42,968 bases of DNA. Origin: Patescibacteria group bacterium (GTDB lineage Bacteria > Patescibacteriota > Minisyncoccia > UBA6257 > GWB1-50-10). Positions 2,685 through 16,760 of the stretch are shown one piece after another (within the stretch, counting starts at the first letter, position 1; each line of letters starts with the position of its first letter). The DNA is taken from positions 1 to 42,968 of the forward strand of contig JAMCYI010000007.1 in NCBI GenBank assembly GCA_023474215.1, read 5' to 3'. The translations under genes were made by a program, and so were the position numbers. The notes under the pieces were generated by a model that was not told the origin of the DNA, made no database searches, and worked only from the letters and a program-made list of their open reading frames with translations.

Positions 2685-3422
2685 ATGATCGTCAAATCCA
2701 TACAAACGCGCATATTCAGGGAAGGAGAACCACTTCTGCCGTTCATCAACCGCTATATCAAAAAACTGAACGATAAGTCCATTCTCGTCGTGACGTCGAA
2801 AATCGTTTCCCTCTCGGAAGGGAATGTCCGAGAAATAAAAAACTCCCGCACGCGGGAAAATCTCATTAAAGCGGAAAGCGAATTCGCGATGCGCACGAAG
2901 TACACCTGGCTCACCGTGAAAGACGGCATGGTGATGTCCTCGGCCGGCGTCGACGAATCAAATGCAAACGGGAAGATCGTTCTCCTTCCGCGGGACAGCT
3001 TTAAAACGGCGGGAATGCTGCGGCTCGATCTCATGAAACGGCACCGCATCAAAAACCTCGGCATCATCATAACCGACAGCCGTCTCCTTCCCCTCCGCGC
3101 CGGTGTCGTGGGCGTCGCTCTCGGCTGGAGCGGCTTTTCAGGCGTGCGGGACTACCGCGGGAAACCCGATATTTTCGGCAGAATCCTCAGACTTTCGCGA
3201 ACCGACCTCGCGGACAGTCTGGCGACCGCGGCAGTCGCGGTCATGGGCGAAGGCGCGGAACAACAACCGCTGGCCCTCATAACCGGCGCACCCGTGGAAT
3301 TCAGGAAAAATACCGATAGAAACGAGCTCTCCATCGACATTAAGGAGGATATTTATCAACCCCTCTTCGAAAAAATAAAGAAACTGAAACTGCCGAAAAA
3401 ACATGCGGGAAATAGAAATTAA
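2685..3422 (+). CDS. CofE-like gamma-glutamyl ligase (F420-0:glutamate ligase family; possibly alternative folylpolyglutamate synthase)
   Basis: VVTSKIVS, AGVDESN, IITDS, DYRGKPDIFGR, DSLA and MGEGAEQQP motifs. Confidence 0.85.
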   Translation: MIVKSIQTRIFREGEPLLPFINRYIKKLNDKSILVVTSKIVSLSEGNVREIKNSRTRENLIKAESEFAMRTKYTWLTVKDGMVMSSAGVDESNANGKIVLLPRDSFKTAGMLRLDLMKRHRIKNLGIIITDSRLLPLRAGVVGVALGWSGFSGVRDYRGKPDIFGRILRLSRTDLADSLATAAVAVMGEGAEQQPLALITGAPVEFRKNTDRNELSIDIKEDIYQPLFEKIKKLKLPKKHAGNRN

Positions 3423-3951
3423 ACTCAGGGTAAAAAATTTCAAAGCATTGGAAGTGAAGCTCACCGCCGATAACTGCCGGCTCTCGGATCCGATCCGACA
3501 GGAAGACGTCATCTATTCGCTTCGCGGAAGTGAAAATGAATGGCGGGAAGCCAAAGAGGGTGATATCATCGTCCGGATACGACGAGAAAACAACCGCTCT
3601 CTTTTTACTTTGAAAAAGCAGCAAACAAATGAAATGGACAACACGGAGCTTGAGACGGAAGTGAGCGATCCGGATGCTCTCCACGAAGCACTTCTCCTCA
3701 TGGGATACGTTCCTCAGGTAGAGGTCAAGAAAAACCGAAGGGAGGGCAAATGGGGAGAATATGAGATTTGCCTCGACGAGGTCGATGAACTCGGCACGTT
3801 TGTCGAACTTGAGAAACTAACATCCGAAGACGCCGATCCGAATGAGGTCCGGGAAGAATTATTTAAAGTCCTCGAAAACCTTGGCCTCTCGCGGAATGAT
3901 GAAGAAACGCGGGGATACGATACCCAGATGTACCTCCTCCGGAAAAAGTGA
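3403..3951 (+). CDS. CYTH domain protein (class IV adenylate cyclase / triphosphate tunnel metalloenzyme)
   Basis: EIEIK N-terminal motif; RIR, ELETEV, LDEVDELGTFVELE. Confidence 0.88.
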   Translation: MREIEIKLRVKNFKALEVKLTADNCRLSDPIRQEDVIYSLRGSENEWREAKEGDIIVRIRRENNRSLFTLKKQQTNEMDNTELETEVSDPDALHEALLLMGYVPQVEVKKNRREGKWGEYEICLDEVDELGTFVELEKLTSEDADPNEVREELFKVLENLGLSRNDEETRGYDTQMYLLRKK

Positions 3952-6124
3952 TCACTGTTTTTTGAGGGGGAACGAAACCGTAAACGTACTCCCCTTTCCT
4001 TCCGAAGATTTGAACGTGACGGCACCGCCCATCTTGTCCGAGAGCATCCGGACGATAAAGAGCCCCAACCCCGTACCCGAGACCTCTTGAGTGTTCTTTC
4101 CGCGGACCCGGAAAAACTTTTGAAAGATATGTTCCTTTTGGTCCTCCGGAATGCCATAGCCGGTATCCTTGAATTCCATAACGACGCTCGACCCCTTTTT
4201 TGAGACGACAATGCCGAGCGTTCCGCCGGTTTTATTGTACTTGATGCCGTTGCTCACCAGATTCATAATGACCTCCTTCACTTTGTCGGAATCCACGAGC
4301 GCCGGAGGGATCTTGCCGCTGGAACGGAACGTCACCCGGACTTTCTGCTTGCGGGGCCAGCGAAGACATTTCCTTCACGACCGACTGAACGATCGGAACG
4401 ACATCGGTCGGCTGCACGGAAACTTTCACGGTGCCGGATTCCGAACGAGCGATCTCAAGGAGATCATTGATAAGCTGGTTCAAAATGTCGCTCGCCGAAT
4501 TGATCGCCTTTAAATTTTCCCGTACGTCCTTCGGGAATTTCACGCTGGTCTTTGAAACCATTTGAAGGAATCCCTTGATGGCCGCAATGGGAGTTCGAAG
4601 CTCGTGCGCGGCGATGAACACGAATTCGTCCTTCAACCGGGCGACGTTCCTTGCCTCGGCGAGTTCGCGCTCTTCGGTTTCTTTCAACTCCTTCGTGCGC
4701 TCTTCCACGCGCCCTTCCAATTCCTTGTTGAATTCCTTGATTTCGGCGTAAGACTGCGCATTGTCGATGGCAACGCCGGCGCTTAAAGCAAAGGTATTCA
4801 AAAACTTCAGATCCTGGCTGTAGTACACCTCCCCCGATCTCTTTTCTCCGAGCACCAGAAGGGCAACTTCGCGCTTTTCGACGCGGATAGGGATGGCAAC
4901 GGCAACATCGAACGACCGGAAAAGCTGTTTCAACGGCCCTTCCTCAAGATCGTCGAAGAGGAAATACGGCACCGCATCGAAAGACCCGTGAAAAAGTCCC
5001 TCGAACCCCGAAGCGGTCAAAAGCCGCTTGTCGTAACCGACACCAAAGACATTCACAAAAACATGATCACGCATAATGAGGAATGCCCCCTTCGAAATAT
5101 TCATGCTTTTCATGAGCGCTTTGAGGATTTGATCCGTCAGCGCCTCAAGATCGATCGTCTCCGCCATGATGTGAGTAAGCTCCGAAAGAAGGATGTCGCT
5201 GTCGTACGACCCGGCGAAAAAGATCTTGTTCGTTATGCGCCGCATCGAGCGCTCAAGCGGTTCGAAAGAAAGAGCGGTCACGGCTAAAAGGATGAGGAAT
5301 ATGATGAAAAGATTGAAACTGATGGGAATGAAACGATCGGCAATCAAGAGAAGCACAAGAGAATATGCACCAGCGAGGAGGACGACCAGGACCACGAAAG
5401 AAACTATGCGGACGATGACGGGCTTGATGTCCAACAGATGATACCTGCTGATGGCGTATGCGATGGCGGTAAGCAGTACAAAGAGATAGGACGGACCCAA
5501 AAACACCGTGGCGGAAGTCTTGAAAAAAACCACGAGAATGAACGTCAAAACAGCCAAGACTGAAAAAGAAAATGACATGCCGACCAAGAGGGTGCCCCAC
5601 CCGGCTTTTTCGATGCCCGTCGCCCGGTGATACTTCCTGACCATAATGACCAAACTGAGAGCTATGAGCGCCACAAAATCAATGAAGTAGAGGAAAATAC
5701 CCGGCCCCGGCACGGGAACCGGCTGGCCATTCGGATACTGAATGCCTTGGAAGATGAGCGGGGTGAACGACAAGACGGCCGTCGCCCCCATGAGAAGGAT
5801 GAGCGGAACGGAATACCGCTTCTTCATTTGAAATTTTGCACGGGGAAAGGTAGCCGCAAAAAACACCAAAAGAGGGCCGAGGAACGCGCTGAAAAACATC
5901 ACCACCCGTATCCAAAAAAGCTGATCGCCGGGGGTTTGTATCGGCGGATGCAACGACAAGAAATTCGAAATATCGTAAATGTCGATATAAACGGCGATAA
6001 GCAGGAAAAATCGGTGCGTCCAACTTTTGGGATTCTTGAGAAAAACAGCAAGACCAATGAACGTCGTAATGGCAAACACGGCGATCCCCAACACAACTTC
6101 TATCGTTTTCACCTCAAGAGGCAT
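3952..6124 (-). pseudogene. Membrane sensor histidine kinase (multi-TM / HisKA_7TM-like + GAF + HisKA + HATPase) split by a +1 frameshift
   Basis: H-box AAHELRTP lies in ORF 4232..6184. N, G1, F and G2 boxes (NLVSNGIKY, DTGYGI, FQKFFR, GTGLGL) lie in ORF 3952..4335. Removing one G from GGGG at 4353-4356 joins them as ...SSLA-RKQKVRVTF... (~723 aa). Confidence 0.85.
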
Positions 6125-6131
6125 CATTCCT

Positions 6132-6140
6132 ATTATACCA
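6132..6140 (-). promoter_or_regulatory. Extended -10 promoter (TGgTATAAT) of the kinase gene, probably leaderless
   Basis: TATAAT 7 nt upstream of ATG 6124. Confidence 0.6.
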
Positions 6141-6144
6141 ATAC

Positions 6145-6175
6145 AAAAATAAAAGGACCGCGGAATGCGGTCCTT
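6145..6175 (-). terminator. Rho-independent terminator of the ThiF operon
   Basis: AAGGACCGC-ATTCC-GCGGTCCTT followed by TTATTTTTG on the minus strand. Confidence 0.75.
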
Positions 6176-6188
6176 GAAAGGCAACAGA

Positions 6189-7184
6189 TCAATGATCGGC
6201 CGCCCGTATCATTTGCCGGATGCTCTTCGATCGGTCCGGTAGAGATGTGATCTTGAGTCTCAAAGCAGGGTTGTCCCCGACCTCGCGATCGAGGATATCC
6301 CGAAGCTTGCCGTCATCGGACTTGATAAAGAGTCCGATATCGTCGACCGAAAGATGCAGTTTTCTCACGGAAGCATACAACTCCTCGTTATTCAAAAAAT
6401 ACAACGGGAATCGATACACATACGAAGAAAGTGCTTGCCGATCCAAGCGGATCGACGCTTCCGGAACGCCGAGGATCACATGCGCCGGTGTGAAGGCAGG
6501 TGGAAAGATAGCGTCATTGCGTCTCACGGACAACGCTTTGACAATGAGCTCATCTCGAATGATGCCGAAGAGATACCGAAACGGAAACCCTTTCCGGGAA
6601 CATTCATCGAGGAACGATTCGTTGATGACGGCGAAACCCAGTGCAACATCCGCATGTTTCGACGGCAAGAGATCCGAGTACTTTTCGAATCCTCGGTCGC
6701 GAAAAAAGGGACGGATGCCGCAAAGCCGCGAACTGTTCACGATAAAATCCCGATAATCGGATCGGGAGCCGAAAAGAATCTCCTTCGCCGCTTCCATGAC
6801 GGGCTTGCCGTTGCAAACGAAGAGCGACAATTCCTCCACGTCAGGAGGATCGCCGCTGGCCGGTACAAAACGGTAGCTCACCCATTCTTCGATCATGGCT
6901 CCATCGAGCTTTTTCCGGTGAGGATAATCCAACCGAACAAGATACACAACGGCTTTCCCGTCGTCGCGATCGAGCGGCCGGAAATCTCCCCAACGCTGAT
7001 ACGAAGTTCTCGAAGCAACGACGAGCTTCCGCAGCGCATCGCTTTCCCATTCGTCGCGGAAAAGGCTCTTTGCTCGATACACCTCGAACTGAATTCCACC
7101 GATGACACGCTTTGCGATCGGCGGAGGAAGTGCTGTTCCGAGCTCCCGTATTTCGACAAGAGAAATTGCGGATTCGTTCTTCAT
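6189..7184 (-). CDS. Hypothetical protein, putative GNAT-fold (LuxI/FeeM-like) N-acyltransferase
   Basis: LDRDD..AVVYL, SYRFVPASGDP and NSSRLCGI resemble the LuxI/FeeM D-x-x-D, RLLP and ExSRF blocks. SD GGAG; ATGA-coupled to the nitroreductase. Fold assignment is inference. Confidence 0.55.
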   Translation of the reverse strand: MKNESAISLVEIRELGTALPPPIAKRVIGGIQFEVYRAKSLFRDEWESDALRKLVVASRTSYQRWGDFRPLDRDDGKAVVYLVRLDYPHRKKLDGAMIEEWVSYRFVPASGDPPDVEELSLFVCNGKPVMEAAKEILFGSRSDYRDFIVNSSRLCGIRPFFRDRGFEKYSDLLPSKHADVALGFAVINESFLDECSRKGFPFRYLFGIIRDELIVKALSVRRNDAIFPPAFTPAHVILGVPEASIRLDRQALSSYVYRFPLYFLNNEELYASVRKLHLSVDDIGLFIKSDDGKLRDILDREVGDNPALRLKITSLPDRSKSIRQMIRAADH

Positions 7185-8257
7185 AGCAACTCCCCTTCCT
7201 CGGCAATGATCTCTCCGACCTCGTTGACCGAAAGACGCGGTGCATGGGGCATTGTTTCTTTCGCATACCCCATTCGAAAGAGCATGGTCGGACGACCCTT
7301 GCCTTTCAATCTCAGCCGGAGCATTTGATTTGCCAGGCCGACTTCGATGATGCCTGCATGAACCGCGACGCTCAGTCCGTTCGATTGAGCGGAGAGGGCG
7401 GCTTTTTCAAAAGCCATCCCGACCGTAAGCCACGACCGCGGCGTATCTTCCGGAGCGCTCACCACAAAAACGGCAGGCGAACTCCGGATACCGTTGCGGC
7501 TTGAACGGGCGAATCCCGCCATTTTTCCGGGATTCACCGGTCCGACTTTCCCCAGTTCCTGCTTTATGGAAGATGCCGTCATATCGTCCAAACCGAACGT
7601 CATTCCGGGCATTCCCCTCCCTTCCAGAGAATTGTTTACCAAAAAGAACTTCGACAGTTCGTTTCGGAAACGAGTTCTCATCACGACCGTACTGTCGGCC
7701 ATATACTGGAAGTCGGAAATGGCGAGAATGGTCGGCATATCTGTTATGACCTGCAGTTCCAAGCCCATGTCTTGAATCATTCCCGTGATCCGATCGATGA
7801 TTGCGGAAGGGATCGGCTTCGTTGAATCGTATTCGTTCCGATTCATGCTCCGCGCTTTCATGACATTCAAAAGTTCACGGTCACTGTGGAGCACGTACGA
7901 TTCGCGGACATCTTCAAGGCGGAATGAAACAATGGGCGCCGGGTACAACGGCATGCCGGGCAGAAAATCGAAGGAATAGGACAAATGGTATGATTCCGCT
8001 GCCGAAACGACATTTTGGAGCGCGCATCCGATACTGACGACCGACTGGCGCCCCCGTTTGTCGGATTCCGGTAAAACGAACCGACCGTCCAAGCAAAGAT
8101 CGATCACTCCTTTCGATGGAATGATGCGGAATTTCCACGGCTGGGTGTTATGCGTGCTTGGCGCAAGGATCCCCCACCCGACAAGATGTTCCAAGAGCTC
8201 TTCGACACCGACATCCCCTTCGAGGATCGGGATATTCCAAGGATCGTAGTTCTTCAC
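7181..8257 (-). CDS. Nitroreductase family protein (Acg/Rv1355c C-terminal-like)
   Basis: LAPSTHNTQPWKF, SIGCALQN, RSMNR, LFRMGY..PR; SD AAGGAGG, GTG start overlapping the upstream stop. Confidence 0.9.
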   Translation of the reverse strand: MKNYDPWNIPILEGDVGVEELLEHLVGWGILAPSTHNTQPWKFRIIPSKGVIDLCLDGRFVLPESDKRGRQSVVSIGCALQNVVSAAESYHLSYSFDFLPGMPLYPAPIVSFRLEDVRESYVLHSDRELLNVMKARSMNRNEYDSTKPIPSAIIDRITGMIQDMGLELQVITDMPTILAISDFQYMADSTVVMRTRFRNELSKFFLVNNSLEGRGMPGMTFGLDDMTASSIKQELGKVGPVNPGKMAGFARSSRNGIRSSPAVFVVSAPEDTPRSWLTVGMAFEKAALSAQSNGLSVAVHAGIIEVGLANQMLRLRLKGKGRPTMLFRMGYAKETMPHAPRLSVNEVGEIIAEEGELL

Positions 8258-9456
8258 CGACTCACCCTCCTTTCAGCGTTCGTTATGTTGATGAATGTTC
8301 GTTCCTTCAGCTCGTGTCCCAAAATGATCCGCGGAACCGCTTCTCCGGCGAGACCAGCAGCAACCATGGCGGTCGATCCGAGCTGAGGCGCACCGCCGAA
8401 CTCCGGCGGAACGCCGTCGTGCATAAGACTTTCGACAATGATCTTGAATTCGGGCATCTGCCGATAGGTATGGCCTATCAGACCGAAGGCGAATTGAAAA
8501 AAATTGCCGAGGCTCGGATTTTTCCGGTACTGCTCTTCGACGGCGGAAATCTCTTCGTCCGACATGCCGCCGATGACAAGCGGTGATCCGGGATCAAGGT
8601 CGTACCGCTGGACATCCCGCTCGGCACCGGAACCGACATCTGAACTCATGACGACCGGTTTTCGAAGCTCGCGCGCTTTGCGGCGGATAAGCATTTTGAT
8701 GTCCGGATTGTCCACTTCATCGATGACGACGGTTGCCGGCGGCTCCCCGATAGACGGATTTCCGCCGATGAAATCATCGATGTTTCCCGCGTGGATCCCT
8801 TCGTTGAAGACGGAAATCTTCAAAAAGGGGTCGATAGCGTGGAGCTGTTCGGCAGTAACGATTGCCTTGTTCCTGCCAAGCTCATCGTAGCTTATCCGCA
8901 TCCGATTTGCGTTCGTGAGATCGAATATATCTTGATCTGCAATCTTGACATGCAGGGGGCGTACATTGAACACCACGGCATGAACGACATGGTTGCCCAA
9001 GCTGCAACCGGCAACCGCCGGAACGGACTGTTCGAAACGGTTGCGCACCTTCTGCCAATCGAGTTTCATCTCGGGATCGAGGAACAGCGTTCCGTTCCTC
9101 ACCACAAGCGACAAACGGTGCCAAAACGGCGGTGCAAACCGCACCACGTGTCCGCGGCGCGGATAGTAAACGAGTGTACCGTACCCGGACATATCGCTTT
9201 CCCCTTCTTCATATGCCTCCCATTCTTCCTGGAAACTCTCGGCAAGGGGCGAACCTTGCGTCAGATCGGCGAGGAGGCCCCTCATGGTGGGGATCAGTTG
9301 ATCGAAAAAATTCTTCCGCTCCACCATGCGGAAAAATTTACCGTTCCGATCCGCCAGCTCGATGCCGTCGTCTCGGTCGCGGATTTGAAATCCTTCCGGA
9401 AGCAGAAATTCCGGTTTCCCCTCGTAATCGGCGTAGGGATTCTTTTGCGCTTCCAT
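8254..9456 (-). CDS. ThiF/MoeB-family adenylyltransferase (Rv1355c N-terminal-like)
   Basis: LVYYP...RN, VAGCSLG, IADQDIFDLTNANR, LGRNKA, IDPF, IDEVD..K, DVQRYD and PQLGS; SD AAGGAG. Confidence 0.9.
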   Translation of the reverse strand: MEAQKNPYADYEGKPEFLLPEGFQIRDRDDGIELADRNGKFFRMVERKNFFDQLIPTMRGLLADLTQGSPLAESFQEEWEAYEEGESDMSGYGTLVYYPRRGHVVRFAPPFWHRLSLVVRNGTLFLDPEMKLDWQKVRNRFEQSVPAVAGCSLGNHVVHAVVFNVRPLHVKIADQDIFDLTNANRMRISYDELGRNKAIVTAEQLHAIDPFLKISVFNEGIHAGNIDDFIGGNPSIGEPPATVVIDEVDNPDIKMLIRRKARELRKPVVMSSDVGSGAERDVQRYDLDPGSPLVIGGMSDEEISAVEEQYRKNPSLGNFFQFAFGLIGHTYRQMPEFKIIVESLMHDGVPPEFGGAPQLGSTAMVAAGLAGEAVPRIILGHELKERTFINITNAERRVSR

Positions 9457-9583
9457 GGACGCAAACTCCTTTCTTTAAAGTTATTTCGTTCGTTATGAAA
9501 TTATCAAGAGAGCACTCTCTCATCTGCTATAAAATAGCGTGGCACGGCAGCAACACCTTGTCAAAGTATGATATAATGGAAAA

Positions 9584-9991
9584 ATGACAACTCAAACGGA
9601 TGCCCCCTTGAACGGCGTGACCGTCCTTATTGCCGACGACGATCCGCTTATTTGCCAGCTGTACCGAGAAACCGTGGAACGGGCGGGCGGAAGTGCCGTC
9701 GTGGCAGTCGACGGCGGCGATGCGCTCCGGAAACTCGGAGAAGCGAGCGTTGATTTGATCCTCCTTGATATTAAAATGCCGAATATGAACGGCTATGAGG
9801 TGGTTCGAAGGCTGCGGAGCGACCCGAAAACGAAGGACATTCCGGTCTTTATTCTCACGAGCCTCGATACTCATCCGGAATACTTGGAAGAGACGACTGG
9901 CGTAAAGGTGGATGAATATATCATCAAAACGAAAATACTGCCGGATGAGATCGTGGGAAAGATACGCGAACACTTGAAGAAAGAAAATTAA
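9584..9991 (+). CDS. Stand-alone response regulator receiver (CheY-like)
   Basis: IADDD, LLDIKMPNMNG, ILTS, YIIK. Confidence 0.92.
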   Translation: MTTQTDAPLNGVTVLIADDDPLICQLYRETVERAGGSAVVAVDGGDALRKLGEASVDLILLDIKMPNMNGYEVVRRLRSDPKTKDIPVFILTSLDTHPEYLEETTGVKVDEYIIKTKILPDEIVGKIREHLKKEN

Positions 9992-9996
9992 AAATC

Positions 9997-10034
9997 AAAC
10001 GGCATCTTTGGACAAGATGCCGTTTTTTTATTTT
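9997..10034. terminator. Rho-independent terminator between convergent genes
   Basis: AAACGGCATCTT-TGGAC-AAGATGCCGTTT followed by a T-tract. Confidence 0.8.
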
Positions 10035-10043
10035 GCCTTACGG

Positions 10044-10610
10044 TCAGTTATACATGATCCCCCGCGTGAGCCGGAATCCTCGTATCGCCTTCAGCGCCAC
10101 CTCGTAGGCAGCGAACAACACAAAGCTGTACGCGAACGTACTGAGGAAAGTGTTCCCGAGGAACGGTACAGCGGCGACATAGCATGCAACGAGTCCGTTC
10201 CAGGTTATGGGGTACATTCCGCTTGCTGCCCACACGCCGAAGTTCGATATCAAAAAGAATGTTATCGAACCAGCAAGGGACCCTGCGAACGATGCAGGAA
10301 CTACCTTCTTTCCGCCGATTTCCTTCCTGTGCATGGTAAGAGCCATGCCAATCACCATGACAAGAATGACGGCAAGGTAATCAACTCCCGCCACGATACC
10401 GAAGTGATATTGTCCGGGATGGTAGTACATCCAAAGGGCATCGCTGAATGCCATGGAACCGAATGCAACGAGCGTTCCGCGCGCCCCTCCCAGATACGCT
10501 CCCGCAAAGAGAGCAGCTGCCAAGACCGCGGTGAAATTCGGTGCGGGTTCTGTAAATCTGGAAATGGTCGCAATGGCAATCAATGCGATTGCCAACAATG
10601 TTTTTTTCAT
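10044..10610 (-). CDS. DUF6580-like putative membrane transporter (ECF S-component-like)
   Basis: PNFTAVLAAALFAGAY, FFLISNFGVW, YP....GLVACYVAAVPF; 5-6 TM helices. Confidence 0.75.
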   Translation of the reverse strand: MKKTLLAIALIAIATISRFTEPAPNFTAVLAAALFAGAYLGGARGTLVAFGSMAFSDALWMYYHPGQYHFGIVAGVDYLAVILVMVIGMALTMHRKEIGGKKVVPASFAGSLAGSITFFLISNFGVWAASGMYPITWNGLVACYVAAVPFLGNTFLSTFAYSFVLFAAYEVALKAIRGFRLTRGIMYN

Positions 10611-10690
10611 TTTTATCTCCTTACTTTATTTTTCAGATATTCAGCTTATATTCAAATGTTAAGAAGCTGACTTGGGATTTCCAGTATATC

Positions 10691-11245
10691 CTACCCCAGC
10701 TTCCTTGTCCACGCGACAAGCGCTTCGATCATTTCTTTCACCTTGGCCTTCGTCGCTTCGTCTGTGAGGTTGCCACCCGCATCGAATTTGTCCTGGATCA
10801 TCGAGACCATCACCTCGGGTTTATTCAAGGGGTGCATATCGAGAAAAACCATCATCTGGCGCAAGTGATACTGGGCGCGGGAACCGCCCAGCATACCAAC
10901 TGAGCCGCTTATGATGGCCGCGGGCTTGCCAGACCAAGCGCTCTCCCCGTACGGACGGGACCCGCAATCAATGGCGTTTTTGAGGGCGCCCGACACGGAA
11001 TAGTTGTACTCCGGCGTCACAAAAAGCACCGCGTCACTTTCTTTGATTTTCTTCTTGAATTCCTTGACCGCTTCCGGCATATCCATTTCCCAGTCTTGAT
11101 TAAAAAGCGGCAATCCGCCGATGTCGACGATTTCCACTTCCGCGTCCTCAAATTTCATCCCCGCCGCCGCTTTCAGAAGCTTCGTATGAAACGACTCTTT
11201 CCGCAAACTCCCCGAAATACCCACGATCTTTATTTTATCGTTCAT
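10691..11245 (-). CDS. NAD(P)H-dependent FMN reductase (ChrR/SsuE family)
   Basis: GISGSLRKES, VTPEYNYSVSGALKNAID, GGSRAQYHLRQ; start MNDKIK. Confidence 0.93.
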   Translation of the reverse strand: MNDKIKIVGISGSLRKESFHTKLLKAAAGMKFEDAEVEIVDIGGLPLFNQDWEMDMPEAVKEFKKKIKESDAVLFVTPEYNYSVSGALKNAIDCGSRPYGESAWSGKPAAIISGSVGMLGGSRAQYHLRQMMVFLDMHPLNKPEVMVSMIQDKFDAGGNLTDEATKAKVKEMIEALVAWTRKLG

Positions 11246-11249
11246 GCCA

Positions 11250-11558
11250 TTATTTGTTTTTATTTTTCGTATTTGACCTTTGTTTTTTGACATCGCTGAC
11301 CAAGTTCATCAGAAGGTCGAGCGTATATTTGGAATTTAAAGTGTAGAATATCTCCTGGCCGCGCCGCTCGTCGATGACCAGATTGCAGGCCTTCAGAACT
11401 TTCAGATGCTGGGAAACCGCCGGCTGGGAAAGTTTCACGATCCCGACGAGCTCCCCGACGGTCTTCCGGCCCTTCAGAAGCGCTTCGATGATGCGGTAGC
11501 GCGAGGCATTGCCGATGCCCTTGCCGAATTTCTCTATCTCGCTGCACAAATCACTCAT
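11250..11558 (-). CDS. ArsR/SmtB family transcriptional regulator
   Basis: SRYRII..L...TVGEL...LSQPAVSQHLKVLK..NLV..ERRG..IFY. Confidence 0.92.
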   Translation of the reverse strand: MSDLCSEIEKFGKGIGNASRYRIIEALLKGRKTVGELVGIVKLSQPAVSQHLKVLKACNLVIDERRGQEIFYTLNSKYTLDLLMNLVSDVKKQRSNTKNKNK

Positions 11559-11594
11559 ATATAAACATATTAGCATATGCTTATATATTGTCAA
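11557..11594 (-). promoter_or_regulatory. Sigma70 promoter overlapped by a 14-4-14 inverted repeat (probable ArsR operator)
   Basis: TTGACA (11594-11589)-N16-TAATAT with extended TG; IR ATATATAAACATAT / ATATGCTTATATAT. Confidence 0.8.
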
Positions 11595-11602
11595 CCCCAA
11601 CC

Positions 11603-11629
11603 AAAAACCGCCCGGAAAGGACGGTTTTT
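11603..11629 (-). terminator. Rho-independent terminator of zwf-gnd
   Basis: AAAAACCGTCC-TTTCC-GGGCGGTTTTT on the minus strand. Confidence 0.75.
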
Positions 11630-11634
11630 GAATA

Positions 11635-14001
11635 TCAGCGCCTTTTCGGTCCCTTTATGGAATGTCCACCAAATTGATTCCGCAGCATCGAAAGGATCTG
11701 ACCGATGTAACTCGGATGTTTTTCCGATTGGACTCGGAAATCGAACGAATCCTTGATCACTTTGACCGACACGCCGAGTTTCTTCGCCGTCTTCACGGTC
11801 CACTCGCCTTCCCCGGTATGCGCCACGGTTCCCGAAACACCCCTCAAGTCGTCGCCGTACTCCGCAAAACCTGATTTCAGCCAATCAACAAGGCGCGACG
11901 TGATGACGCTCCCGTGGCCGTATACCCGCGCGATCTCCTGTAAATCCAGCGCGAGCTTCGATTTCTTGATGACCGCGAACCCTTCCGCCAGAGCCTGCAT
12001 CATGCCGTACTCGATTCCGTTATGGACCATCTTCACGAAATGCCCCGCGCCATGGCGACCCATATACCCATAGCCATCCTTGAGTGCGAGATCGAAGAAG
12101 AGCGGCTCGAGATAGTCGAAATCTTTCCGATCGCCGCCCACCATGAGGGATGCCCCGTTCAGGGCGCCTCCCGGTCCCCCTGAAACGCCCACATCGATAA
12201 ACCGGATGCCTGCTTTTTGAAGTTTCTTCGCGCGCGTGATTGAATCTTCAAAAAACGAATTGCCCCCGTCAACGATGACATCTCCTTTTTTCAAATATCT
12301 GAGGATCCCCCCACTTCCGAAAATCATTTCATCAACCGTCTTGCCGGCGGGAACCATAAGCCATACGACTTTTGGAGAAGGGAGTTTCGAGACAAGTTCC
12401 TCGATCGAAGAAGCCGCAATAAGGCCTTCCTTTCCCATATTCCTTGCAATTTCGGTCGTCCGGTTCCATACATGGACTTTCCACCCCTTCCCATGCAATT
12501 GCCGTGCGAGCGCGGCGCCCATCTTCCCCAAACCAACAATGCCGATTTCTTTCGGCATGCCGACTGAAACGGCCGGCCCGTCCACAACTTCAGCCTCCTT
12601 TGCAATGCGGCTTGAATCGGGCTCATAACGCATCAAGGGAACTGTCCCCCTTCGCCATCCGGCGATGATCGGATCGATGAATTTCCACATCGCCTTGATT
12701 TCGCCCGATGAAACGAAGAGTGTTTGATCGTCTGAAATGCAATCAAAAAGGAGCTTCTCGTATTCTTCGGTATACTGAGAGTGTTCGCCGCTCCTCCTGA
12801 ATTCGAAACCGAGCGTACGTTTCTCAAGCTCCATCCGGTGCCCCGGCTTTTTAGACCAAAAACATACCGTAATCCCCTCCTTCGGTTCGAGATGGATGGT
12901 AAGTGAATCTTTGTACGGCGTGTCGTTCCTGAAAACGACTTCGATCTCCTTCAGGGGCTTTCCCATCCGCTTTCCGGATTCCAAGGTGATGTCGACACCC
13001 TGCCAGCGGGGATGCATAAGCGCGGCCTTGATCTTGAAATAGGTTTCAGTATCCGAGTCGGTCGTAACGCCCTTGATCGTTCGGTAACCATTGTACTGGG
13101 CGCGGAAAGTTCCTCTTTGAACCTCGCCGGCCGAGGGCGTTTTCAACGTTTCGATGATCCTCGCCCGTTCCCGCCTGATGTCCTCGGCCGAAAACGATGC
13201 CGGCTTTTCCATCGCAATGAGCGCGAGCATTTGAAGCAGATGATTTTGCCCGACGTCCCGGAGGGCCCCCACACCGTCGTAAAACCCTCCCCGCTCTTCG
13301 ACGCCGATCGATTCCCAAAGGCGGATATGAATGCTTTCGATAAGCTCCTTATCCCACGCCGACTCGAAGAGATTGTTCGAGAAACGGAATACCAGGATGT
13401 TTTGAAGCATCTCTTTTGCAAGGTAGTGATCGATCCGGTAAATTTGTTTTTCCTTGAACAGTTTGTCGAGCAGGCCGTCGAGCGCCTTCGCGCTTTTTTC
13501 GTCGCTCCCGAACGGCTTTTCGACAATGACGCGCGTCCACCCTTCGTCGGGCCCGCCGCACGGCTCATTCAGACCCGTTGCCGCAAGATTGTTCAAAATT
13601 TCCGGATACATCCGGGGCGGAACGGCCAAATACAAAAGTTTATTGGAACACATGCCCCATGATTCATCGATCGATTGCAGCGTCTTCGCTAGGGCTTCGA
13701 AGTCTTTCTTGCTCTCGAATGTTCCCCGCTGATACGAATAGAGGGACAGGAAATCCTTAATGATCGTATCACTCTTCTTCACTTTGTGGCGCTTCGCGAG
13801 AACCTCGAATGCCCGATCCCGGAGATCTTGGTCGGTAAGATCGCGCCGCGCAAAACCGACGAGGCGAAACCGTTCGGGAAGCAAACCTTTCTGATAAAGA
13901 TTGAAAAGCGAGGGAACGATCTTTTTCCCCATAAGGTCTCCTGTTGCCCCCAAAACCACGACAATGGTCGGTATTTGCGGCGTCTTCGTTTTCTTTTTCA
14001 T
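11635..14001 (-). CDS. zwf: Fused glucose-6-phosphate dehydrogenase / 6-phosphogluconate dehydrogenase (Zwf-Gnd)
   Basis: GATGDL, EKPFG and RIDHYLAKE (G6PD), then GLGKMG, DGGNS, VSGG, KMVHNGIEY and LRNQFGGH (short YqeC-type 6PGDH) in one ORF. Confidence 0.92.
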   Translation of the reverse strand: MKKKTKTPQIPTIVVVLGATGDLMGKKIVPSLFNLYQKGLLPERFRLVGFARRDLTDQDLRDRAFEVLAKRHKVKKSDTIIKDFLSLYSYQRGTFESKKDFEALAKTLQSIDESWGMCSNKLLYLAVPPRMYPEILNNLAATGLNEPCGGPDEGWTRVIVEKPFGSDEKSAKALDGLLDKLFKEKQIYRIDHYLAKEMLQNILVFRFSNNLFESAWDKELIESIHIRLWESIGVEERGGFYDGVGALRDVGQNHLLQMLALIAMEKPASFSAEDIRRERARIIETLKTPSAGEVQRGTFRAQYNGYRTIKGVTTDSDTETYFKIKAALMHPRWQGVDITLESGKRMGKPLKEIEVVFRNDTPYKDSLTIHLEPKEGITVCFWSKKPGHRMELEKRTLGFEFRRSGEHSQYTEEYEKLLFDCISDDQTLFVSSGEIKAMWKFIDPIIAGWRRGTVPLMRYEPDSSRIAKEAEVVDGPAVSVGMPKEIGIVGLGKMGAALARQLHGKGWKVHVWNRTTEIARNMGKEGLIAASSIEELVSKLPSPKVVWLMVPAGKTVDEMIFGSGGILRYLKKGDVIVDGGNSFFEDSITRAKKLQKAGIRFIDVGVSGGPGGALNGASLMVGGDRKDFDYLEPLFFDLALKDGYGYMGRHGAGHFVKMVHNGIEYGMMQALAEGFAVIKKSKLALDLQEIARVYGHGSVITSRLVDWLKSGFAEYGDDLRGVSGTVAHTGEGEWTVKTAKKLGVSVKVIKDSFDFRVQSEKHPSYIGQILSMLRNQFGGHSIKGPKRR

Positions 14002-14070
14002 GATTGTTTATACATTTTATACCTTTGTAAGGGATACGCAAAAACCGGGAAAATGTTCCCTAAAAACATG

Positions 14071-14105
14071 AAGAGCGCTCAAGATTTGAATCTTGGCGCT
14101 CTTTT
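14071..14105. terminator. Hairpin, probable terminator after the cysteine-synthase-like gene
   Basis: AAGAGCGC(T)CAAGATT-TG-AATCTTGGCGCTCTT. Confidence 0.55.
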
Positions 14106-14118
14106 GCGTCAACGGAAA

Positions 14119-15165
14119 CTACAAGATTTCCCATGGCATCGGCGCCGTGGAGGGTCTTTGCCACTCGAGAGGCAGAAAAACGGTGAATCGGTCTGCCACG
14201 TACGGTCTGAAATTGTCATGAAATATCATGACAACCTTGATAATCCCGCTTTTTTTGTGGCGGAGACGGTCAAGTGTCCCCTTTTCCTTTTCGGATCTCA
14301 GGAACTTCAAACCAGCGGCATACGTGAGTCCACTGCTCACCCCAGGAGTTATTCCCTGGTGCCAGGCAAAGTGGAGCGCAGAGAGATACGAAACCCTCGT
14401 CTCGACCTCAATCCGCTCATCGATGGCATCCCGCCAGGGAAGGAGAATCTCTTTCATTCCCATAAGATCGCGTACGCCGGGAACTTCGTGGCCCGGAGCA
14501 CACATAGCTCCAACCACCGTCACTTTCCCGTCGAGCTTCTCCCGTACCCCTCCACCGATTCCGACAACCGAACCACCCGTACCGACCGGTACGACAAGTG
14601 TCGTCACTTGAGGTACCTGAGCTAAAATCCGCGGAGCAGCCCACGTTCGATAGAAGGAAGCATTGGCGGGGTTGGCATACTGATCCAGATCCAACCAACC
14701 TTCCGGTGACATTGTCCATTCTCCGTCGGGTTTCCATCCACCGCCGCCGAGCTTCCGCGCGGTCGCAATCGGACTTAACCCTTCAAGAGGTGGAATGATA
14801 TGTGCACCGACCAAGTACGGGGGATATTTTTTACCGTGCGGAACATCCTCCTTCATGACCAAGGTTATCTTCGGAATGTTGAACGGCTCCGCTGGAGCAA
14901 TCGCCGCCATAACCAATCCGAAAGCACCGGACGTTCCGTCGATCAGCGTTTTTACCCCTTCAAGCATTCCCTTCGCCTTTGCATCTTGGAGAAGCCCCAA
15001 GACAGCCAAAAACTTCATCGTCTCGTAAGGCATTGAGTATCCAAGAACGGCATACATTTCAACCTTATCTTCCTTGAAGGGATTCAACGCATCAGCTACC
15101 GGAACGACCAAAAGAGGCCAATCTCTGTGCTTATCCGCAAACGTCTCTAGATAAAAGTTCTTCAT
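14119..15165 (-). CDS. Divergent PLP-dependent cysteine-synthase-like (fold type II) enzyme
   Basis: GTSGAFG, LDQYANPAN, VGTGGS, GVSSG; probable PLP lysine in ETMK; SD GAGGTG. Confidence 0.8.
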   Translation of the reverse strand: MKNFYLETFADKHRDWPLLVVPVADALNPFKEDKVEMYAVLGYSMPYETMKFLAVLGLLQDAKAKGMLEGVKTLIDGTSGAFGLVMAAIAPAEPFNIPKITLVMKEDVPHGKKYPPYLVGAHIIPPLEGLSPIATARKLGGGGWKPDGEWTMSPEGWLDLDQYANPANASFYRTWAAPRILAQVPQVTTLVVPVGTGGSVVGIGGGVREKLDGKVTVVGAMCAPGHEVPGVRDLMGMKEILLPWRDAIDERIEVETRVSYLSALHFAWHQGITPGVSSGLTYAAGLKFLRSEKEKGTLDRLRHKKSGIIKVVMIFHDNFRPYVADRFTVFLPLEWQRPSTAPMPWEIL

Positions 15166-15236
15166 ATTATCACCTCATTTTGATGAACTTCCCCCAGTTT
15201 GCCTCTCTTTAAAGCCATCTGTCAAACCCCACAACA

Positions 15237-16760
15237 TCAAGCAAACCCCGGGAAAAAGTCGGATTTCACGTTTTTCTTTTCGACACCCATATCGTGCAGA
15301 ACTTTCTTCACGTGCTCCACCATGGCATTGGTGCCGGAAATATAAAACAATCTCTCCCGATAATCGGGGATGCGCTTTCGGATCATTTCGCCGTCGATGC
15401 GCCCCCGTTCACCTTTCCATCCCGGAGGAGCCTCGCCCGTCAGGGTATAGATCGTCTTCATGCCGAGCGATTGCTCCGCTCCATCAAAAACATCGCGGTA
15501 TGCCAAGTCATCGGCCGTCCGCGCCGAATAAAGGAGAATGATCGGGCGGCGGTCATGCATATCCACGAGATACCGCACCATGCTCCGGATCGGCGTGACG
15601 CCGATGCCGCCCGCGATAAGAACCAACTTTTTCGACTTGTCGCGCGGCAGCGTAAAATCGCCCGAAAGCTGCGATGCGACAATGGTATCACCCTTTTGCA
15701 TGGTACCGAGCGCCTTTTTGAACGAGCTGGGATTCGGGTTGAACCGCACCCCCATCCGCATATCGCGTTCGGTCGGTGACGACGCAATGGTAAAGTAGCG
15801 GCGGTTGCCGCGCGAATCGGGATGCGCGTGCGAAAGCGTCCACTCGAGATACTGCCCCGGCTTGAAGCTCAATTTTTCATCCGTCTTGAAAACGAAATCG
15901 TAAAGATTGGTGCCGATCTTCTTCCGCTCGGCAAGCGTCAGGATCAATTTTTTCTTCGAGCTCACGAGATACGAAAAAACGTTCCCGGCAATGAGTGCAA
16001 GTTCCGGCGAGAAATAAAACGACCCGAGGTGCACTTGCGGCGCAAAGAGGAAGCCGACGAGCATCCCATACATCATCCGAAGATTTTCCGTGGGCGGCGC
16101 CGTGAGGGGCTCCGTGAGCATCACGAACGCGAAGAAAAAGAGCGGCGAATCAAGAAGGGCTTGGGACATGAGCCTTGCGATATCCTGGCCGGCAGCGATC
16201 CCGAGAAACAAGGCGGTAACGAGCGCCGTTGCAAGGAAACTGAAAACTAAATCAGACCGCAGAAGTTTTCTGACCATCAAAATGCCTCCCGCAAGAACAA
16301 ACGGCAAAAGAGATACGGTCCCAACCCACCAGCTCGCCGCTTGATTGATCGTCAAGGCCGTCAGCGCAACGCCGAACGCCGCTGGATTGAACAGGTGTTT
16401 CTTTTTGATCGCAAAAATATACTTCGAAGCCATGGCCCAAATGGAAGCCCACACGGCGATCGAAAAATAAGAAGCGGCATGAGATCCGGAAAAAGGCGTT
16501 ATGATGAGGGTCAAGATGAGCGCGGTAATGTAAACCGACTCGACGTTCGTCTGCGCCCTGAAAACACGCGCAAAAACGGAGTTGGCTATCCAAGAAACGC
16601 CCGTTATAAAGAGAGCTGAAAATAAAAGGCCGACCGGGCTGTAGGGAAGAATGCGGACGGCCGAAAAAACGACGGCGACCAAAAGAAGCCCGAGGAGGTA
16701 GTAAAGCACCACCCGGTACATCGTCGTGTTATTCAAAAATCTATCAATGAAACGCAACAT
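15237..16760 (-). CDS. NqrB/RnfD-like membrane domain fused to a ferredoxin-NADP reductase-type FAD/NAD(P)-binding domain
   Basis: KHLFNPAAFG and MLTEPLTAP (NqrB/RnfD-like), then FKPGQY, RYFTIASSP, IAGGIGVTP and FYISG. Confidence 0.85.
   Translation of the reverse strand: MLRFIDRFLNNTTMYRVVLYYLLGLLLVAVVFSAVRILPYSPVGLLFSALFITGVSWIANSVFARVFRAQTNVESVYITALILTLIITPFSGSHAASYFSIAVWASIWAMASKYIFAIKKKHLFNPAAFGVALTALTINQAASWWVGTVSLLPFVLAGGILMVRKLLRSDLVFSFLATALVTALFLGIAAGQDIARLMSQALLDSPLFFFAFVMLTEPLTAPPTENLRMMYGMLVGFLFAPQVHLGSFYFSPELALIAGNVFSYLVSSKKKLILTLAERKKIGTNLYDFVFKTDEKLSFKPGQYLEWTLSHAHPDSRGNRRYFTIASSPTERDMRMGVRFNPNPSSFKKALGTMQKGDTIVASQLSGDFTLPRDKSKKLVLIAGGIGVTPIRSMVRYLVDMHDRRPIILLYSARTADDLAYRDVFDGAEQSLGMKTIYTLTGEAPPGWKGERGRIDGEMIRKRIPDYRERLFYISGTNAMVEHVKKVLHDMGVEKKNVKSDFFPGFA

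Follow-up and report, generated by a model that had tools for sequence, protein, structure and literature searches.

An oxazolone-synthetase-type operon linked to a 7TM histidine kinase in Saccharibacteria-like genomes suggests a make-and-sense chemical signal module, with the kinase gene broken in the source strain

LuxM/LuxN and CqsA/CqsS each combine the synthase of a lipophilic autoinducer with a membrane-embedded kinase receptor, and the N-acyl amino acid synthase of PEP-CTERM/exosortase systems (TIGR03694) is genomically associated with PrsK/PrsR, in which the kinase is a multi-TM, GAF-containing protein. Among CPR bacteria, 18 LuxI homologues located next to a sensory kinase have been described and proposed to form a complete quorum-sensing system (Bernard et al. 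2020, PMC7567580). [quoted passage not shown]

We analyzed a 42,968-nt stretch of DNA (hereafter, the window) from a Patescibacteria group bacterium (GCA_023474215.1, contig JAMCYI010000007.1). The 704-kb source genome (92.7% completeness) has Candidatus Saccharibacteria as its relatives, in agreement with the CPR-like host surmised in an earlier reading that used the letters and open reading frames alone (the sequence-only reading). The window contains three consecutive, overlapping genes, followed by a histidine kinase gene and preceded by a divergent receiver gene (Table 1). The ThiF, nitroreductase, X, and receiver open reading frames were found where that reading had placed them, and its further observations, namely, translational coupling with Shine-Dalgarno sites, a terminator between X and the kinase, and divergent transcription of the receiver, hold as well.

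Table 1. Features of the module in the window (+, forward strand; -, reverse strand)
Feature	Position	Strand	Description
Kinase C-terminal frame	3952-4335	-	HATPase_c (Pfam, 1.1e-28)
Kinase N-terminal frame	4232-6127 from ATG (open frame 4232-6184)	-	HisKA_7TM, GAF-like, HisKA (Pfam)
Frameshift site, four-C run	4353-4356	-	Three C in three relatives
Kinase start signals	6122-6140	-	Extended -10 (TGGTATAAT, 6140-6132), AGGA directly after, two in-frame ATGs (6127, 6124)
Intrinsic-terminator-like hairpin, end of three-gene operon	6153-6175	-	9-bp stem with 6 G-C pairs, then TTATTTTTGT (T-run); between X and kinase
Protein X, unclassified family	6189-7184	-	331 aa; proposed substrate-forming N-acyltransferase equivalent
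Acg/FDO-type nitroreductase-superfamily flavoprotein	7181-8257	-	358 aa; predicted desaturase
ThiF-like adenylating enzyme	8254-9456	-	400 aa; predicted ATP-dependent cyclase
Divergent control region, ThiF/receiver	9457-9583		Extended -10 and ThiF Shine-Dalgarno site
Receiver-only (CheY-like) response regulator	9584-9991	+	135 aa; Response_reg (Pfam, 1.1e-21)

The ThiF gene is preceded by the Shine-Dalgarno sequence AAAGGAG, 9 nt ahead of the ATG. Its stop and the nitroreductase start share a 4-nt overlap, GTGA, with AAAGGAGG ahead of it, and the nitroreductase stop and the X start likewise overlap by 4 nt (ATGA), with GGAAGGGGAG upstream. An extended -10 element, TGATATAAT (9569-9577), is located 6 nt ahead of the receiver ATG; the promoter-like matches in this control region are consensus matches only. 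The scanned region shows just a mild excess of terminator-like sites (17, compared with 9.7 +/- 3.0 in shuffles).

As the sequence-only reading had inferred, the first two proteins of the operon are of the oxazolone-synthetase type, each corresponding to one half of the Rv1355c/TrzS family. In addition to the Pfam ThiF domain (2.5e-15), the ThiF-like protein matches the N-terminal part of the NCBIfam model NF005901, "Rv1355c family" (2e-37, residues 85-307), with a score that stays under the whole-protein cut-off, as no more than half of this fused model can be matched. BLASTP aligned it with a Rhodococcus Rv1355c-family protein over 356 aa (28% identity, E 1e-29), and in this alignment, the G-x-S-x-G loop and the D-x-D..N-x-NR and DE-x-D motifs (nucleotide-binding and Asp motifs) line up. 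ThiF matches were also found in all 15 plasmid records, the best of them annotated "Rv1355c family protein." The nitroreductase matches the C-terminal part of NF005901 (9.7e-20), the Pfam Nitroreductase domain (9.8e-11), and the Acg family model NF047509 (1.3e-55; 189.2 bits, just under the cut-off of 199); in pairwise BLASTP, it aligns weakly with the Rhodococcus fusion protein (E 0.002).

The main new result of this work is the conserved linkage of oxazolone-type enzymes to one 7TM kinase. The sequence-only reading had supposed that such triads are tied to signaling genes, and we put this claim at risk in a survey of 13 X-bearing loci (window, G003, G007, L025, G001, G058, G198, L021, L022, L023, L024, L026, and L028), all retrieved via X alone. 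The claim withstood it: ThiF and the nitroreductase are present in all 13 loci, an orthologous kinase in 12 (homology extending through the 7TM part, 21-52% identity), and a receiver-only regulator adjoining the module in 10. The one locus without the kinase, G001, retains the triad and the receiver and has an IS integrase in the kinase position. In genus g70, gene order and strands are altered, and the kinase is still adjacent. All-against-all clustering of the ORFs from 9 distinct loci revealed no further gene common to more than 3 of them and no exosortase context. Oxazolone-type enzymes are co-inherited with one kinase and a receiver in approximately 9 distinct lineages, through gene rearrangement. 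The module was detected in 4 of the 9 genomes of the genus, none of the 16 other genera of the family, and 3 of the 401 genomes in a phylum-wide sample; within the genus, module alleles at one chromosomal site are 35-40% identical, compared with 82% for the flanking genes. This linkage suggests that the kinase senses the product of the operon.

Linkage alone is compatible with a kinase that senses the product as well as with one that regulates its synthesis.

The kinase contains HisKA_7TM (1.9e-11), HisKA (3.4e-16), and HATPase_c domains. The sequence-only reading had described it as a membrane GAF histidine kinase: a 7TM kinase indeed adjoins the operon, but the GAF_2 match (1.3e-5, 25.9 bits) is below the cut-off of 28.6, hence "GAF-like," and the gene is split over two frames, such that HisKA and HATPase_c are not parts of one polypeptide in the window. 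No NCBIfam model, PrsK included, matched the 7TM/GAF-like part. The split is due to one extra C in the four-C run; in blastn alignments, each of three related sequences (L011, L012, and L025) shows a 1-nt gap at this run, and the G003 kinase, which starts at the equivalent Met, is a single 723-aa ORF with all three domains. The frameshifted allele was also found in exact-match contigs of runs X2 and X3, from the same study, and contigs of other runs differ from the window at position 4353. An intact kinase is encoded by a co-occurring strain (~94% identical) and by relatives (84-97% identical). With the kinase frameshifted, sensing is probably disabled or changed in the window strain. The kinase is the only HisKA_7TM match in the genome and accounts for one of no more than four HATPase_c matches, so the module makes up a large share of the sensory apparatus of the cell. 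The receiver has no Pfam domain besides Response_reg and no output domain.

Protein X showed no sequence match in Pfam, NCBIfam, or PDB, including a PDB profile search. Searches of Pfam and NCBIfam with 7 members of the X family (E<=10) and with 127 members (E<=1) detected no acyltransferase or other domain; the LuxI, FeeM, Acetyltransf_5, and N-acyl synthase models (PF00765, PF21926, PF13444, and TIGR03694) had no significant match to the family, and cross-family hmmsearch yielded none either. The family comprises 233 representative clusters (E<=0.001) and includes proteins in which X is fused to ThiF (P0146) or to a flavin dehydrogenase (P0123). In profile-profile comparison with hhalign, X aligned weakly with a TrzA-like family (40-sequence alignment; score 25.7, P 0.011, Prob 3.8%) and with canonical LuxI/FeeM-type acyltransferases (PF13444; TIGR03694), here denoted NAS (score 22.3, P 0.032). 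The positive control, TrzA-like against NAS, scored 27.5, and ten decoy or unrelated pairs scored 12.3-18.1; the Prob values for X against these two LuxI-like families are only 1.6-3.8%, yet the scores exceed those of all 10 controls. Both matches cover the same N-terminal region of X; a separate alignment shows that X also carries a C-terminal region of ~115 residues that is absent from LuxI-type enzymes. The profile-profile signals are only suggestive of X being a GNAT/LuxI-like acyltransferase. One X protein, P0084, consists of a canonical NAS N-terminal fragment joined to a complete X domain, and there is a stand-alone NAS-like relative, P0155; such co-occurrence of X with an NAS-like gene, in one lineage at least, argues for a possible different role of X.

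NAS genes (PF13444) were identified in 11 of the 401 sampled Patescibacteria, two of which scored above the TIGR03694 cut-off of 111.95 bits (126.6 and 122.8), and in 9 of these 11 genomes, the next same-strand gene encodes a kinase from the 7TM family of the window kinase (E down to 1e-77). Two NAS-kinase genomes also encode ThiF, in the orders ThiF-NAS-kinase-receiver (L047) and NAS-ThiF-kinase (L048), and these bridge the X-type and NAS-type architectures. Because NAS adjoins the same kinase family, and ThiF, elsewhere, X occupies the position of a known N-acyltransferase. In the kinase tree, 7 of 8 X-linked kinases form a clade with 100/100 support, apart from the NAS-linked kinases. Kinase clades that follow the synthase type are the pattern of synthase-receptor pairs, but related genomes have labels in common, and the pattern therefore falls short of proving co-evolution.

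Taken together, these observations suggest a five-gene module that makes and probably senses a chemical signal. The reading that we prefer, to which we give about even credence, is that the three-gene operon makes an oxazolone-type or dehydro-acyl-amino-acid molecule and that the 7TM kinase and receiver inherited with it most likely detect this molecule or control the response. Under this scheme, X would supply an N-acylated amino-acid-like substrate, ThiF would adenylate the substrate carboxylate and close the oxazolone ring, and the flavoprotein would desaturate the C-alpha/C-beta bond; the lipophilic product could then reach the kinase at its 7TM domain, and the kinase would pass phosphate to the single-domain receiver. 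The source genome yielded no match for ACP, AMP-binding ligase, or phosphotransacetylase, which fits the host-derived acyl donor put forward in the sequence-only reading; at the same time, it counts against the scheme, since the genome itself offers no visible acyl donor. A more far-reaching version appears improbable at present: oxazolone-type acyl-amino-acid derivatives would be true autoinducers with a dedicated 7TM kinase receptor, the module being the first such synthase-receptor pair; the output would report host attachment, and the divergent alleles would be signal-specificity types, like pherotypes elsewhere. In this version, considering that neither ACP, acyl-CoA ligase, nor a canonical acyltransferase was found in the genome, X would represent a new and strongly diverged class of N-acyl synthase using an acyl or other donor (e.g., aminoacyl-tRNA) from the host cell.

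The operon product might instead be an effector (antimicrobial, membrane or stress lipid, or host-aimed molecule), with the kinase and receiver sensing an outside cue, such as host contact or envelope stress, and controlling production or self-protection. The available text of two reports cites antimicrobial N-acyl-tyrosine derivatives and stress- or antibiotic-induced oxazolone production (PMC12856293; bioRxiv 10.1101/2020.06.11.147165); moreover, the kinase, with a promoter of its own beyond the operon terminator, is uncoupled from the synthesis genes, the triad persists without the kinase in G001, and the window strain tolerates a broken kinase. We nevertheless consider an effector unlikely: the receiver has no DNA-binding domain, so that transcriptional control of the operon would be indirect, and the pairing of the same kinase family with LuxI/FeeM-type synthases, along with kinase clades that track the synthase type, is what synthase-receptor pairs would show. 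It is also distinctly unlikely, in our view, that X is an accessory protein involved in delivery, export, hydrolysis, or tailoring, with ThiF and the flavoprotein acting on a preformed substrate (for instance, an N-acyl amino acid from the host, an N-acetyl amino acid, or the C-terminus of a peptide). X occupies the NAS position next to the kinase and ThiF, its weak profile matches converge on one N-terminal region and surpass every control, and the module contains no other conserved candidate for the first step, nor was PF13444 found in the source genome. What speaks for an accessory role is the lack of any acyltransferase family match, the NAS-like gene found adjacent to X or joined with it, the additional C-terminal region, and the genome without ACP and acyl-activating enzymes.

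A different question is whether the circuit is decaying in the window strain, the kinase being a pseudogene and the module an accessory island of patchy inheritance on its way to loss; we rate this at slightly short of even. The extra C that parts HisKA from HATPase_c is retained in the exact-match contigs of X2 and X3, the distribution of the module is patchy both within the genus and beyond it, and an IS element occupies the kinase position in G001. On the other hand, no disruption is seen in the receiver or in the three synthesis genes, the starts of which are coupled, and the kinase is whole in the co-occurring strain and in the relatives. A shared assembly artefact is possible as well, given that runs X2 and X3 share their study with X1, which is possibly the source sample; moreover, a kinase supplied in two pieces might remain functional.

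If the preferred make-and-sense reading is correct, the conserved kinase is a concrete candidate receptor, and the oxazolone signaling hypothesis becomes directly testable. The X family, previously unannotated, is now defined and tied by position to LuxI/FeeM-type synthases. A lipid-like signal pathway would thereby be placed in 0.7-Mb genomes that yielded neither an acyl carrier nor an acyl-activating enzyme, which raises the question of the source of the acyl group in an episymbiont.

The logic of the module is that of LuxM/LuxN and CqsA/CqsS, that is, an enzyme for a hydrophobic molecule encoded beside a polytopic kinase without a large periplasmic domain, with no known sequence relation. 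The PEP-CTERM N-acyl amino acid synthase and PrsK/PrsR resemble the CPR NAS genes beside 7TM kinases, which match TIGR03694; by contrast, the 7TM/GAF-like part of the window kinase has no PrsK match, and the window regulator is receiver-only. As in the CPR LuxI-kinase pairs (PMC7567580), a synthase is encoded directly beside a transmembrane sensor kinase, a pairing that we re-found through the NAS genes, but the synthase in the window is a three-enzyme oxazolone-type operon, the first enzyme of which is not detectably LuxI-like; the term "ThiF" is absent from the main text of that report. Among the oxazolone synthetase systems, TyzB and TyzC are, as in the window, a separate cyclase and flavoprotein. 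The third gene of the OxzA, TyzA, and TrzA systems encodes an acyltransferase, whereas that in the window encodes X, which is not recognizable as one and comes from an unclassified family with an extra C-terminal region, and the window host, unlike those of the described systems, has a 0.7-Mb Saccharibacteria-like genome in which no ACP or acyl-CoA ligase was found. Finally, c-di-GMP genes are the only signaling neighbors of these systems mentioned in the available text of the respective reports (PMC12856293; PMC10404671; bioRxiv 10.1101/2020.06.11.147165), whereas the module described here is accompanied by a 7TM kinase and a receiver.

The window carries three translationally coupled genes, encoding a ThiF-family protein, a nitroreductase-superfamily flavoprotein and a 331-aa protein that we denote X. 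The ThiF ATG has AAAGGAG 9 nt upstream, and the nitroreductase and X starts overlap the preceding stops as GTGA and ATGA, respectively, with a purine-rich Shine-Dalgarno site before each. On the 3' side of the hairpin that follows X lies an extended -10 box (TGGTATAAT), and a membrane histidine kinase gene starts (ATG) immediately after it; a receiver-only regulator is transcribed divergently. This layout, including the coupled starts and the terminator, is the one described in the sequence-only reading. In contrast to the three synthesis genes, all with classical Shine-Dalgarno sites, the kinase and receiver genes have their extended -10 boxes only 4-6 nt from the ATG, which suggests that both mRNAs are leaderless. 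The rest of the window encodes housekeeping functions (a G6PD-6PGD fusion, pyruvate kinase, DnaE, ThrRS, and RpoC), which places the module, that is, the triad with kinase and receiver, on the chromosome. The genome (704 kb in 16 contigs, 92.7% completeness) has close relatives labelled Candidatus Saccharibacteria. The F420-ligase-like/CYTH gene pair of the window is syntenic in G003 and L025; in G007 the CYTH gene alone was detected.

Coordinates of the module and of other features of the window
Feature	Position	Strand	Description
F420-0:gamma-glutamyl-ligase-like gene	2685-3422	+	20-nt overlap with CYTH-domain gene
CYTH-domain gene	3403-3951	+	
Kinase HATPase_c domain	3952-4335	-	Pfam 1.1e-28, separate frame from HisKA
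Extra C in kinase gene	4353-4356		
Extended -10 box and start region, kinase	6122-6140	-	TGGTATAAT
Terminator-like hairpin 3' of X	6175-6153	-	9-bp stem and T-run
X	6189-7184	-	331 aa
Nitroreductase-superfamily protein	7181-8257	-	358 aa
ThiF	8254-9456	-	400 aa
Extended -10 box and start region, receiver	9569-9586	+	TGATATAAT
Receiver-only regulator	9584-9991	divergent from ThiF	135 aa
Bidirectional hairpin 3' of receiver	9997-10025		
G6PD-6PGD fusion	11635-14001	-	one 788-aa ORF, G6PD_N and G6PD_C joined to NAD_binding_2 and 6PGD domains

The two enzymes match different parts of the NCBIfam model NF005901 (Rv1355c family), ThiF the N-terminal part (2e-37) and the nitroreductase the C-terminal one (9.7e-20); the nitroreductase is matched by the Acg-family FMN oxidoreductase model as well (1.3e-55, 189.2 bits vs a cut-off of 199). 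A tblastn search of plasmids with ThiF matched 15 records, the best annotated as Rv1355c family proteins of Rhodococcus and Mycobacterium, and BLASTP against one such protein gave 28% identity over 356 residues (E = 1e-29), with alignment of the glycine-rich loop, D-x-D..N-x-NR, and DE-x-D segments. Rv1355c is described as TrzS, a fusion of ThiF and a nitroreductase-superfamily flavoprotein (FDO), in which N-acyl-tryptophan is cyclised and then desaturated to tryptazolone; TyzB/TyzC and OxzB perform the same reactions on acyl-tyrosine (PMC12856293; PMC10404671; bioRxiv 10.1101/2020.06.11.147165). The oxazolone-synthetase background invoked in the sequence-only reading, and its placing of both enzymes, are thus accurate. 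A RiPP/TOMM-like system, which would pair an E1-like protein with a SagB-type dehydrogenase, was rejected because the module has no conserved YcaO-like or precursor gene and the matches of both enzymes are to the Rv1355c/Acg models; a TcdA-like role in tRNA modification was also set aside, with the TcdA model matching at only 0.0026. On the Rhodococcus qingshengii plasmid pLP1 (L031, 1384-5708), a gene with a GGDEF domain adjoins a TrzA-like/Rv1355c-family pair, echoing the c-di-GMP neighborhood noted for rv1354c/rv1357c (PMC12856293).

X itself matched no Pfam or NCBIfam model, and neither seven close homologues (E <= 10) nor 127 family members (E <= 1) pointed to a relevant family. Profile searches of PDB sequences found no relative; the sole row, thioesterase 4xjv (E = 1.1), was taken as a chance match. 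A word-indexed search returned only seven relatives, and plasmids gave no match. When 1.84 billion representatives were searched with a profile, 233 clusters were recovered at E <= 0.001, including 138 at E <= 1e-30, and X therefore represents a real, unannotated family. Its near-invariant positions include R59, D72, D75, K77, E100, W101, R105, P108, S152, R153, and C155. Several members have informative architectures: P0146 (795 aa, in a cluster with a member named Candidatus Poribacteria) is an X-ThiF fusion, P0123 (Candidatus Magasanikbacteria) joins a dihydroorotate-dehydrogenase-type flavoenzyme to X, and P0084 has a canonical Acetyltransf_5 domain, its N-terminal half only, ahead of a complete X domain. 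P0155, a 177-aa stand-alone protein resembling N-acyl synthases (NAS) and LuxI, is a relative of the Acetyltransf_5 half of P0084. A Nocardia locus (H6/L029) proved to hold an unrelated acyltransferase neighborhood, and the uncharacterised 333-aa protein next to ThiF in L047 does not resemble X (Prob 0.18%).

For analysis of linkage, loci were retrieved through X alone and the other genes were then sought by tblastn; the search for related loci used a seven-sequence alignment (A4), whose motif pattern limits the relatives that can be found. The resulting 13 loci comprise the window, its close relatives G003, G007 (two contigs), and L025, the same-genus G001, G058 and G198 from another genus, and L021-L024, L026, and L028 (L022 is from Candidatus Harrisonbacteria; L027 is identical in sequence). 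ThiF and nitroreductase genes are present in all 13. An adjacent kinase homologous through the 7TM region (21-52% identity) is found in 12, the exception being G001, where an rve-type IS integrase (L010, 7717-8499, +) directly follows X, in the position of the kinase elsewhere. A receiver-only regulator lies in the fetched DNA of 10 loci and was not seen in that of G058, G198 (a 7-kb contig), or L028. A lack of linkage between homologous triads and signaling genes, named in the sequence-only reading as counting against a signaling module, is not what these loci show. In G058 and G198, gene order and strands are altered (kinase -, nitroreductase +, ThiF and X -), with the genes still clustered. 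ORF clustering of nine distinct loci found only the five module genes to be common to more than three; its overlap filter left out the ThiF of L026 and the receiver of the window, both present by tblastn/Pfam. The four host genomes reached through these loci are all 0.7-0.8 Mb. In the Saccharibacteria MAGs L023 and L024, the module kinase is followed by a further histidine kinase (~780 aa) and a further receiver (13380-16126 and 13462-16197, respectively), which hints at a longer phosphorelay.

The distribution of the module is patchy: it is present in 4 of 9 genomes of the same genus (this one included), in none of 16 from other genera of the family, in none of 16 from other families of the order, and in 3 of 401 in the phylum sample. 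The G001 module occupies the same chromosomal place and is 35-40% identical to that of the window, vs 82% for the flanking FMN reductase and 62% for the receiver. Among the four large genes, X diverges fastest, and the G001 X resembles its L021 counterpart (42%) more than it does the X of the window.

A parallel arrangement occurs in other Patescibacteria. The Acetyltransf_5 family (PF13444), not found in the genome under study, is represented in 11 of 401 sampled Patescibacteria genomes, and in nine of these the same-strand neighbor is a HisKA_7TM kinase homologous to that of the window (E down to 1e-77); the two loci lacking the kinase, L053 and L054, are two of the three weakest PF13444 matches. 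These acyltransferases match TIGR03694 (PEP-CTERM/exosortase-associated acyltransferase), two above the cut-off, and some also match TraI models. Two loci bridge the arrangements: L047 (ThiF, NAS, 7TM kinase, receiver) and L048, in which the ThiF gene lies between the NAS and kinase genes. Thus, X holds the position that is filled in other genomes by a bona fide N-acyl synthase, beside ThiF and a kinase of the same family. When the 7TM regions were placed in a tree, seven of the eight X-linked kinases formed a clade (100/100) separate from the NAS-linked ones, and the L028 kinase fell with the kinases of L047 and L049. The partner label changes twice on this tree, compared with a shuffled mean of ~6, a count that is not a test of co-evolution because related genomes share labels; in the tree of the concatenated triad, two close pairs alone were resolved, and it says little on congruence with the kinase tree. 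Among the NAS-kinase loci, L045 (G348, 7746-9047, -) encodes a 434-aa NAS-like protein with a SAM-methyltransferase-like domain (UbiE/MenG-type matches) fused at its N terminus, and in L052 (G081, 9546-12234, +) two tandem ~455-aa ORFs adjoin the pair; their similarity to the kinase is confined to its 7TM/GAF-like part (residues 31-479), and tblastn detected no kinase core in them.

Direct profile comparison also suggests, short of proof, that X is related to LuxI-like acyltransferases. By hhalign, the X family matched 40 TrzA-like proteins, collected from the gene adjoining a Rhodococcus Rv1355c homologue (score 25.7, P = 0.011, 70 columns), and 12 canonical NAS-like proteins (22.3, P = 0.032, 62 columns). 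The positive control, TrzA-like vs NAS, scored 27.5 (P = 0.004, 24 columns), and ten reversed or unrelated pairs scored 12.3-18.1 (P = 0.13-0.71, 10-39 columns). Both matches fall within X residues 24-112. In the alignment to NAS, the E-x-D-x-x-D segment of the NAS profile lies opposite D72-x-x-D75 of X, and its R-L-I-P segment opposite S-x-R105-F-V-P; we take these to be LuxI-type motifs.

The kinase matches HisKA_7TM (1.9e-11) and HisKA (3.4e-16), in agreement with its earlier description as a membrane histidine kinase; the GAF domain assigned to it stayed below threshold (25.9 bits vs a cut-off of 28.6). In this strain the gene is broken: the window has GGCCCCGC where the related loci L011, L012, and L025 (81-99% nucleotide identity) have GGCCCGC, and the extra C puts HisKA and HATPase_c in different frames. 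The circuit could be decaying here; the G003 orthologue is an unbroken 723-aa ORF with the full domain set. When public contigs were compared with the stretch, exact-match contigs from sequencing runs X2 and X3 retained the extra C, and a co-occurring variant (16 differences in 262 nt) and a contig from X4 lacked it. This recurrence favors a real allele without proving it independently, as X2 and X3 come from the same study and X1 may be the source sample. Across 3952-6200 in runs X2-X4, at least two strains, ~94% identical, co-occur in mine-tailings/mine-drainage metagenomes, one with the frameshifted and one with an intact allele.

From their family membership, the ThiF/flavoprotein pair would probably act in the manner of TrzS, closing a ring on a carboxylate-bearing N-acyl substrate and desaturating it. 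X would be the most likely supplier of that substrate, a near-even proposition given its position, its fusion to ThiF, and its weak profile similarity to acyltransferases. Alternatively, X may have another role. The models did not place it in the LuxI/FeeM families, and cross-family hmmsearch against acyltransferases gave nothing below E = 0.1. With P0155 or the Rhodococcus TrzA-like protein as a single-sequence target, hhalign reached Prob 0.1-0.3%. No PP-binding (ACP), AMP-binding ligase, or phosphotransacetylase match was found in this genome, although control genomes matched; at 92.7% completeness such genes are not found rather than absent. This negative result fits the earlier suggestion that the acyl donor may come from the host. 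Judging from linkage, the kinase would most likely respond to the product of the triad through its membrane domain, the more tentative part of the proposal. The product could instead be an effector under kinase control. The receiver carries no output domain.

Oxazolone synthetases have been described in Proteobacteria and Mycobacteriales. LuxI homologues of the Candidate Phyla Radiation (CPR) have been reported beside sensory kinases (18 of 36 HMM-detected) and proposed to form complete quorum-sensing systems (PMC7567580, the main text of which does not contain the term ThiF). Our literature searches, on oxazolones in the CPR and on N-acyl amino acids in Patescibacteria, found no description of a system like this one, and a search for HisKA_7TM returned, judging by titles, archaeal or eukaryotic kinases only. 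The module is therefore a variant on known kinds of system. As in Tyz, ThiF and the flavoprotein are split, but here they are joined to an unclassified third protein; what is new is the hard-wiring of oxazolone-type enzymes so arranged, in ultra-small genomes, to a receiver and a kinase of the 7TM type.
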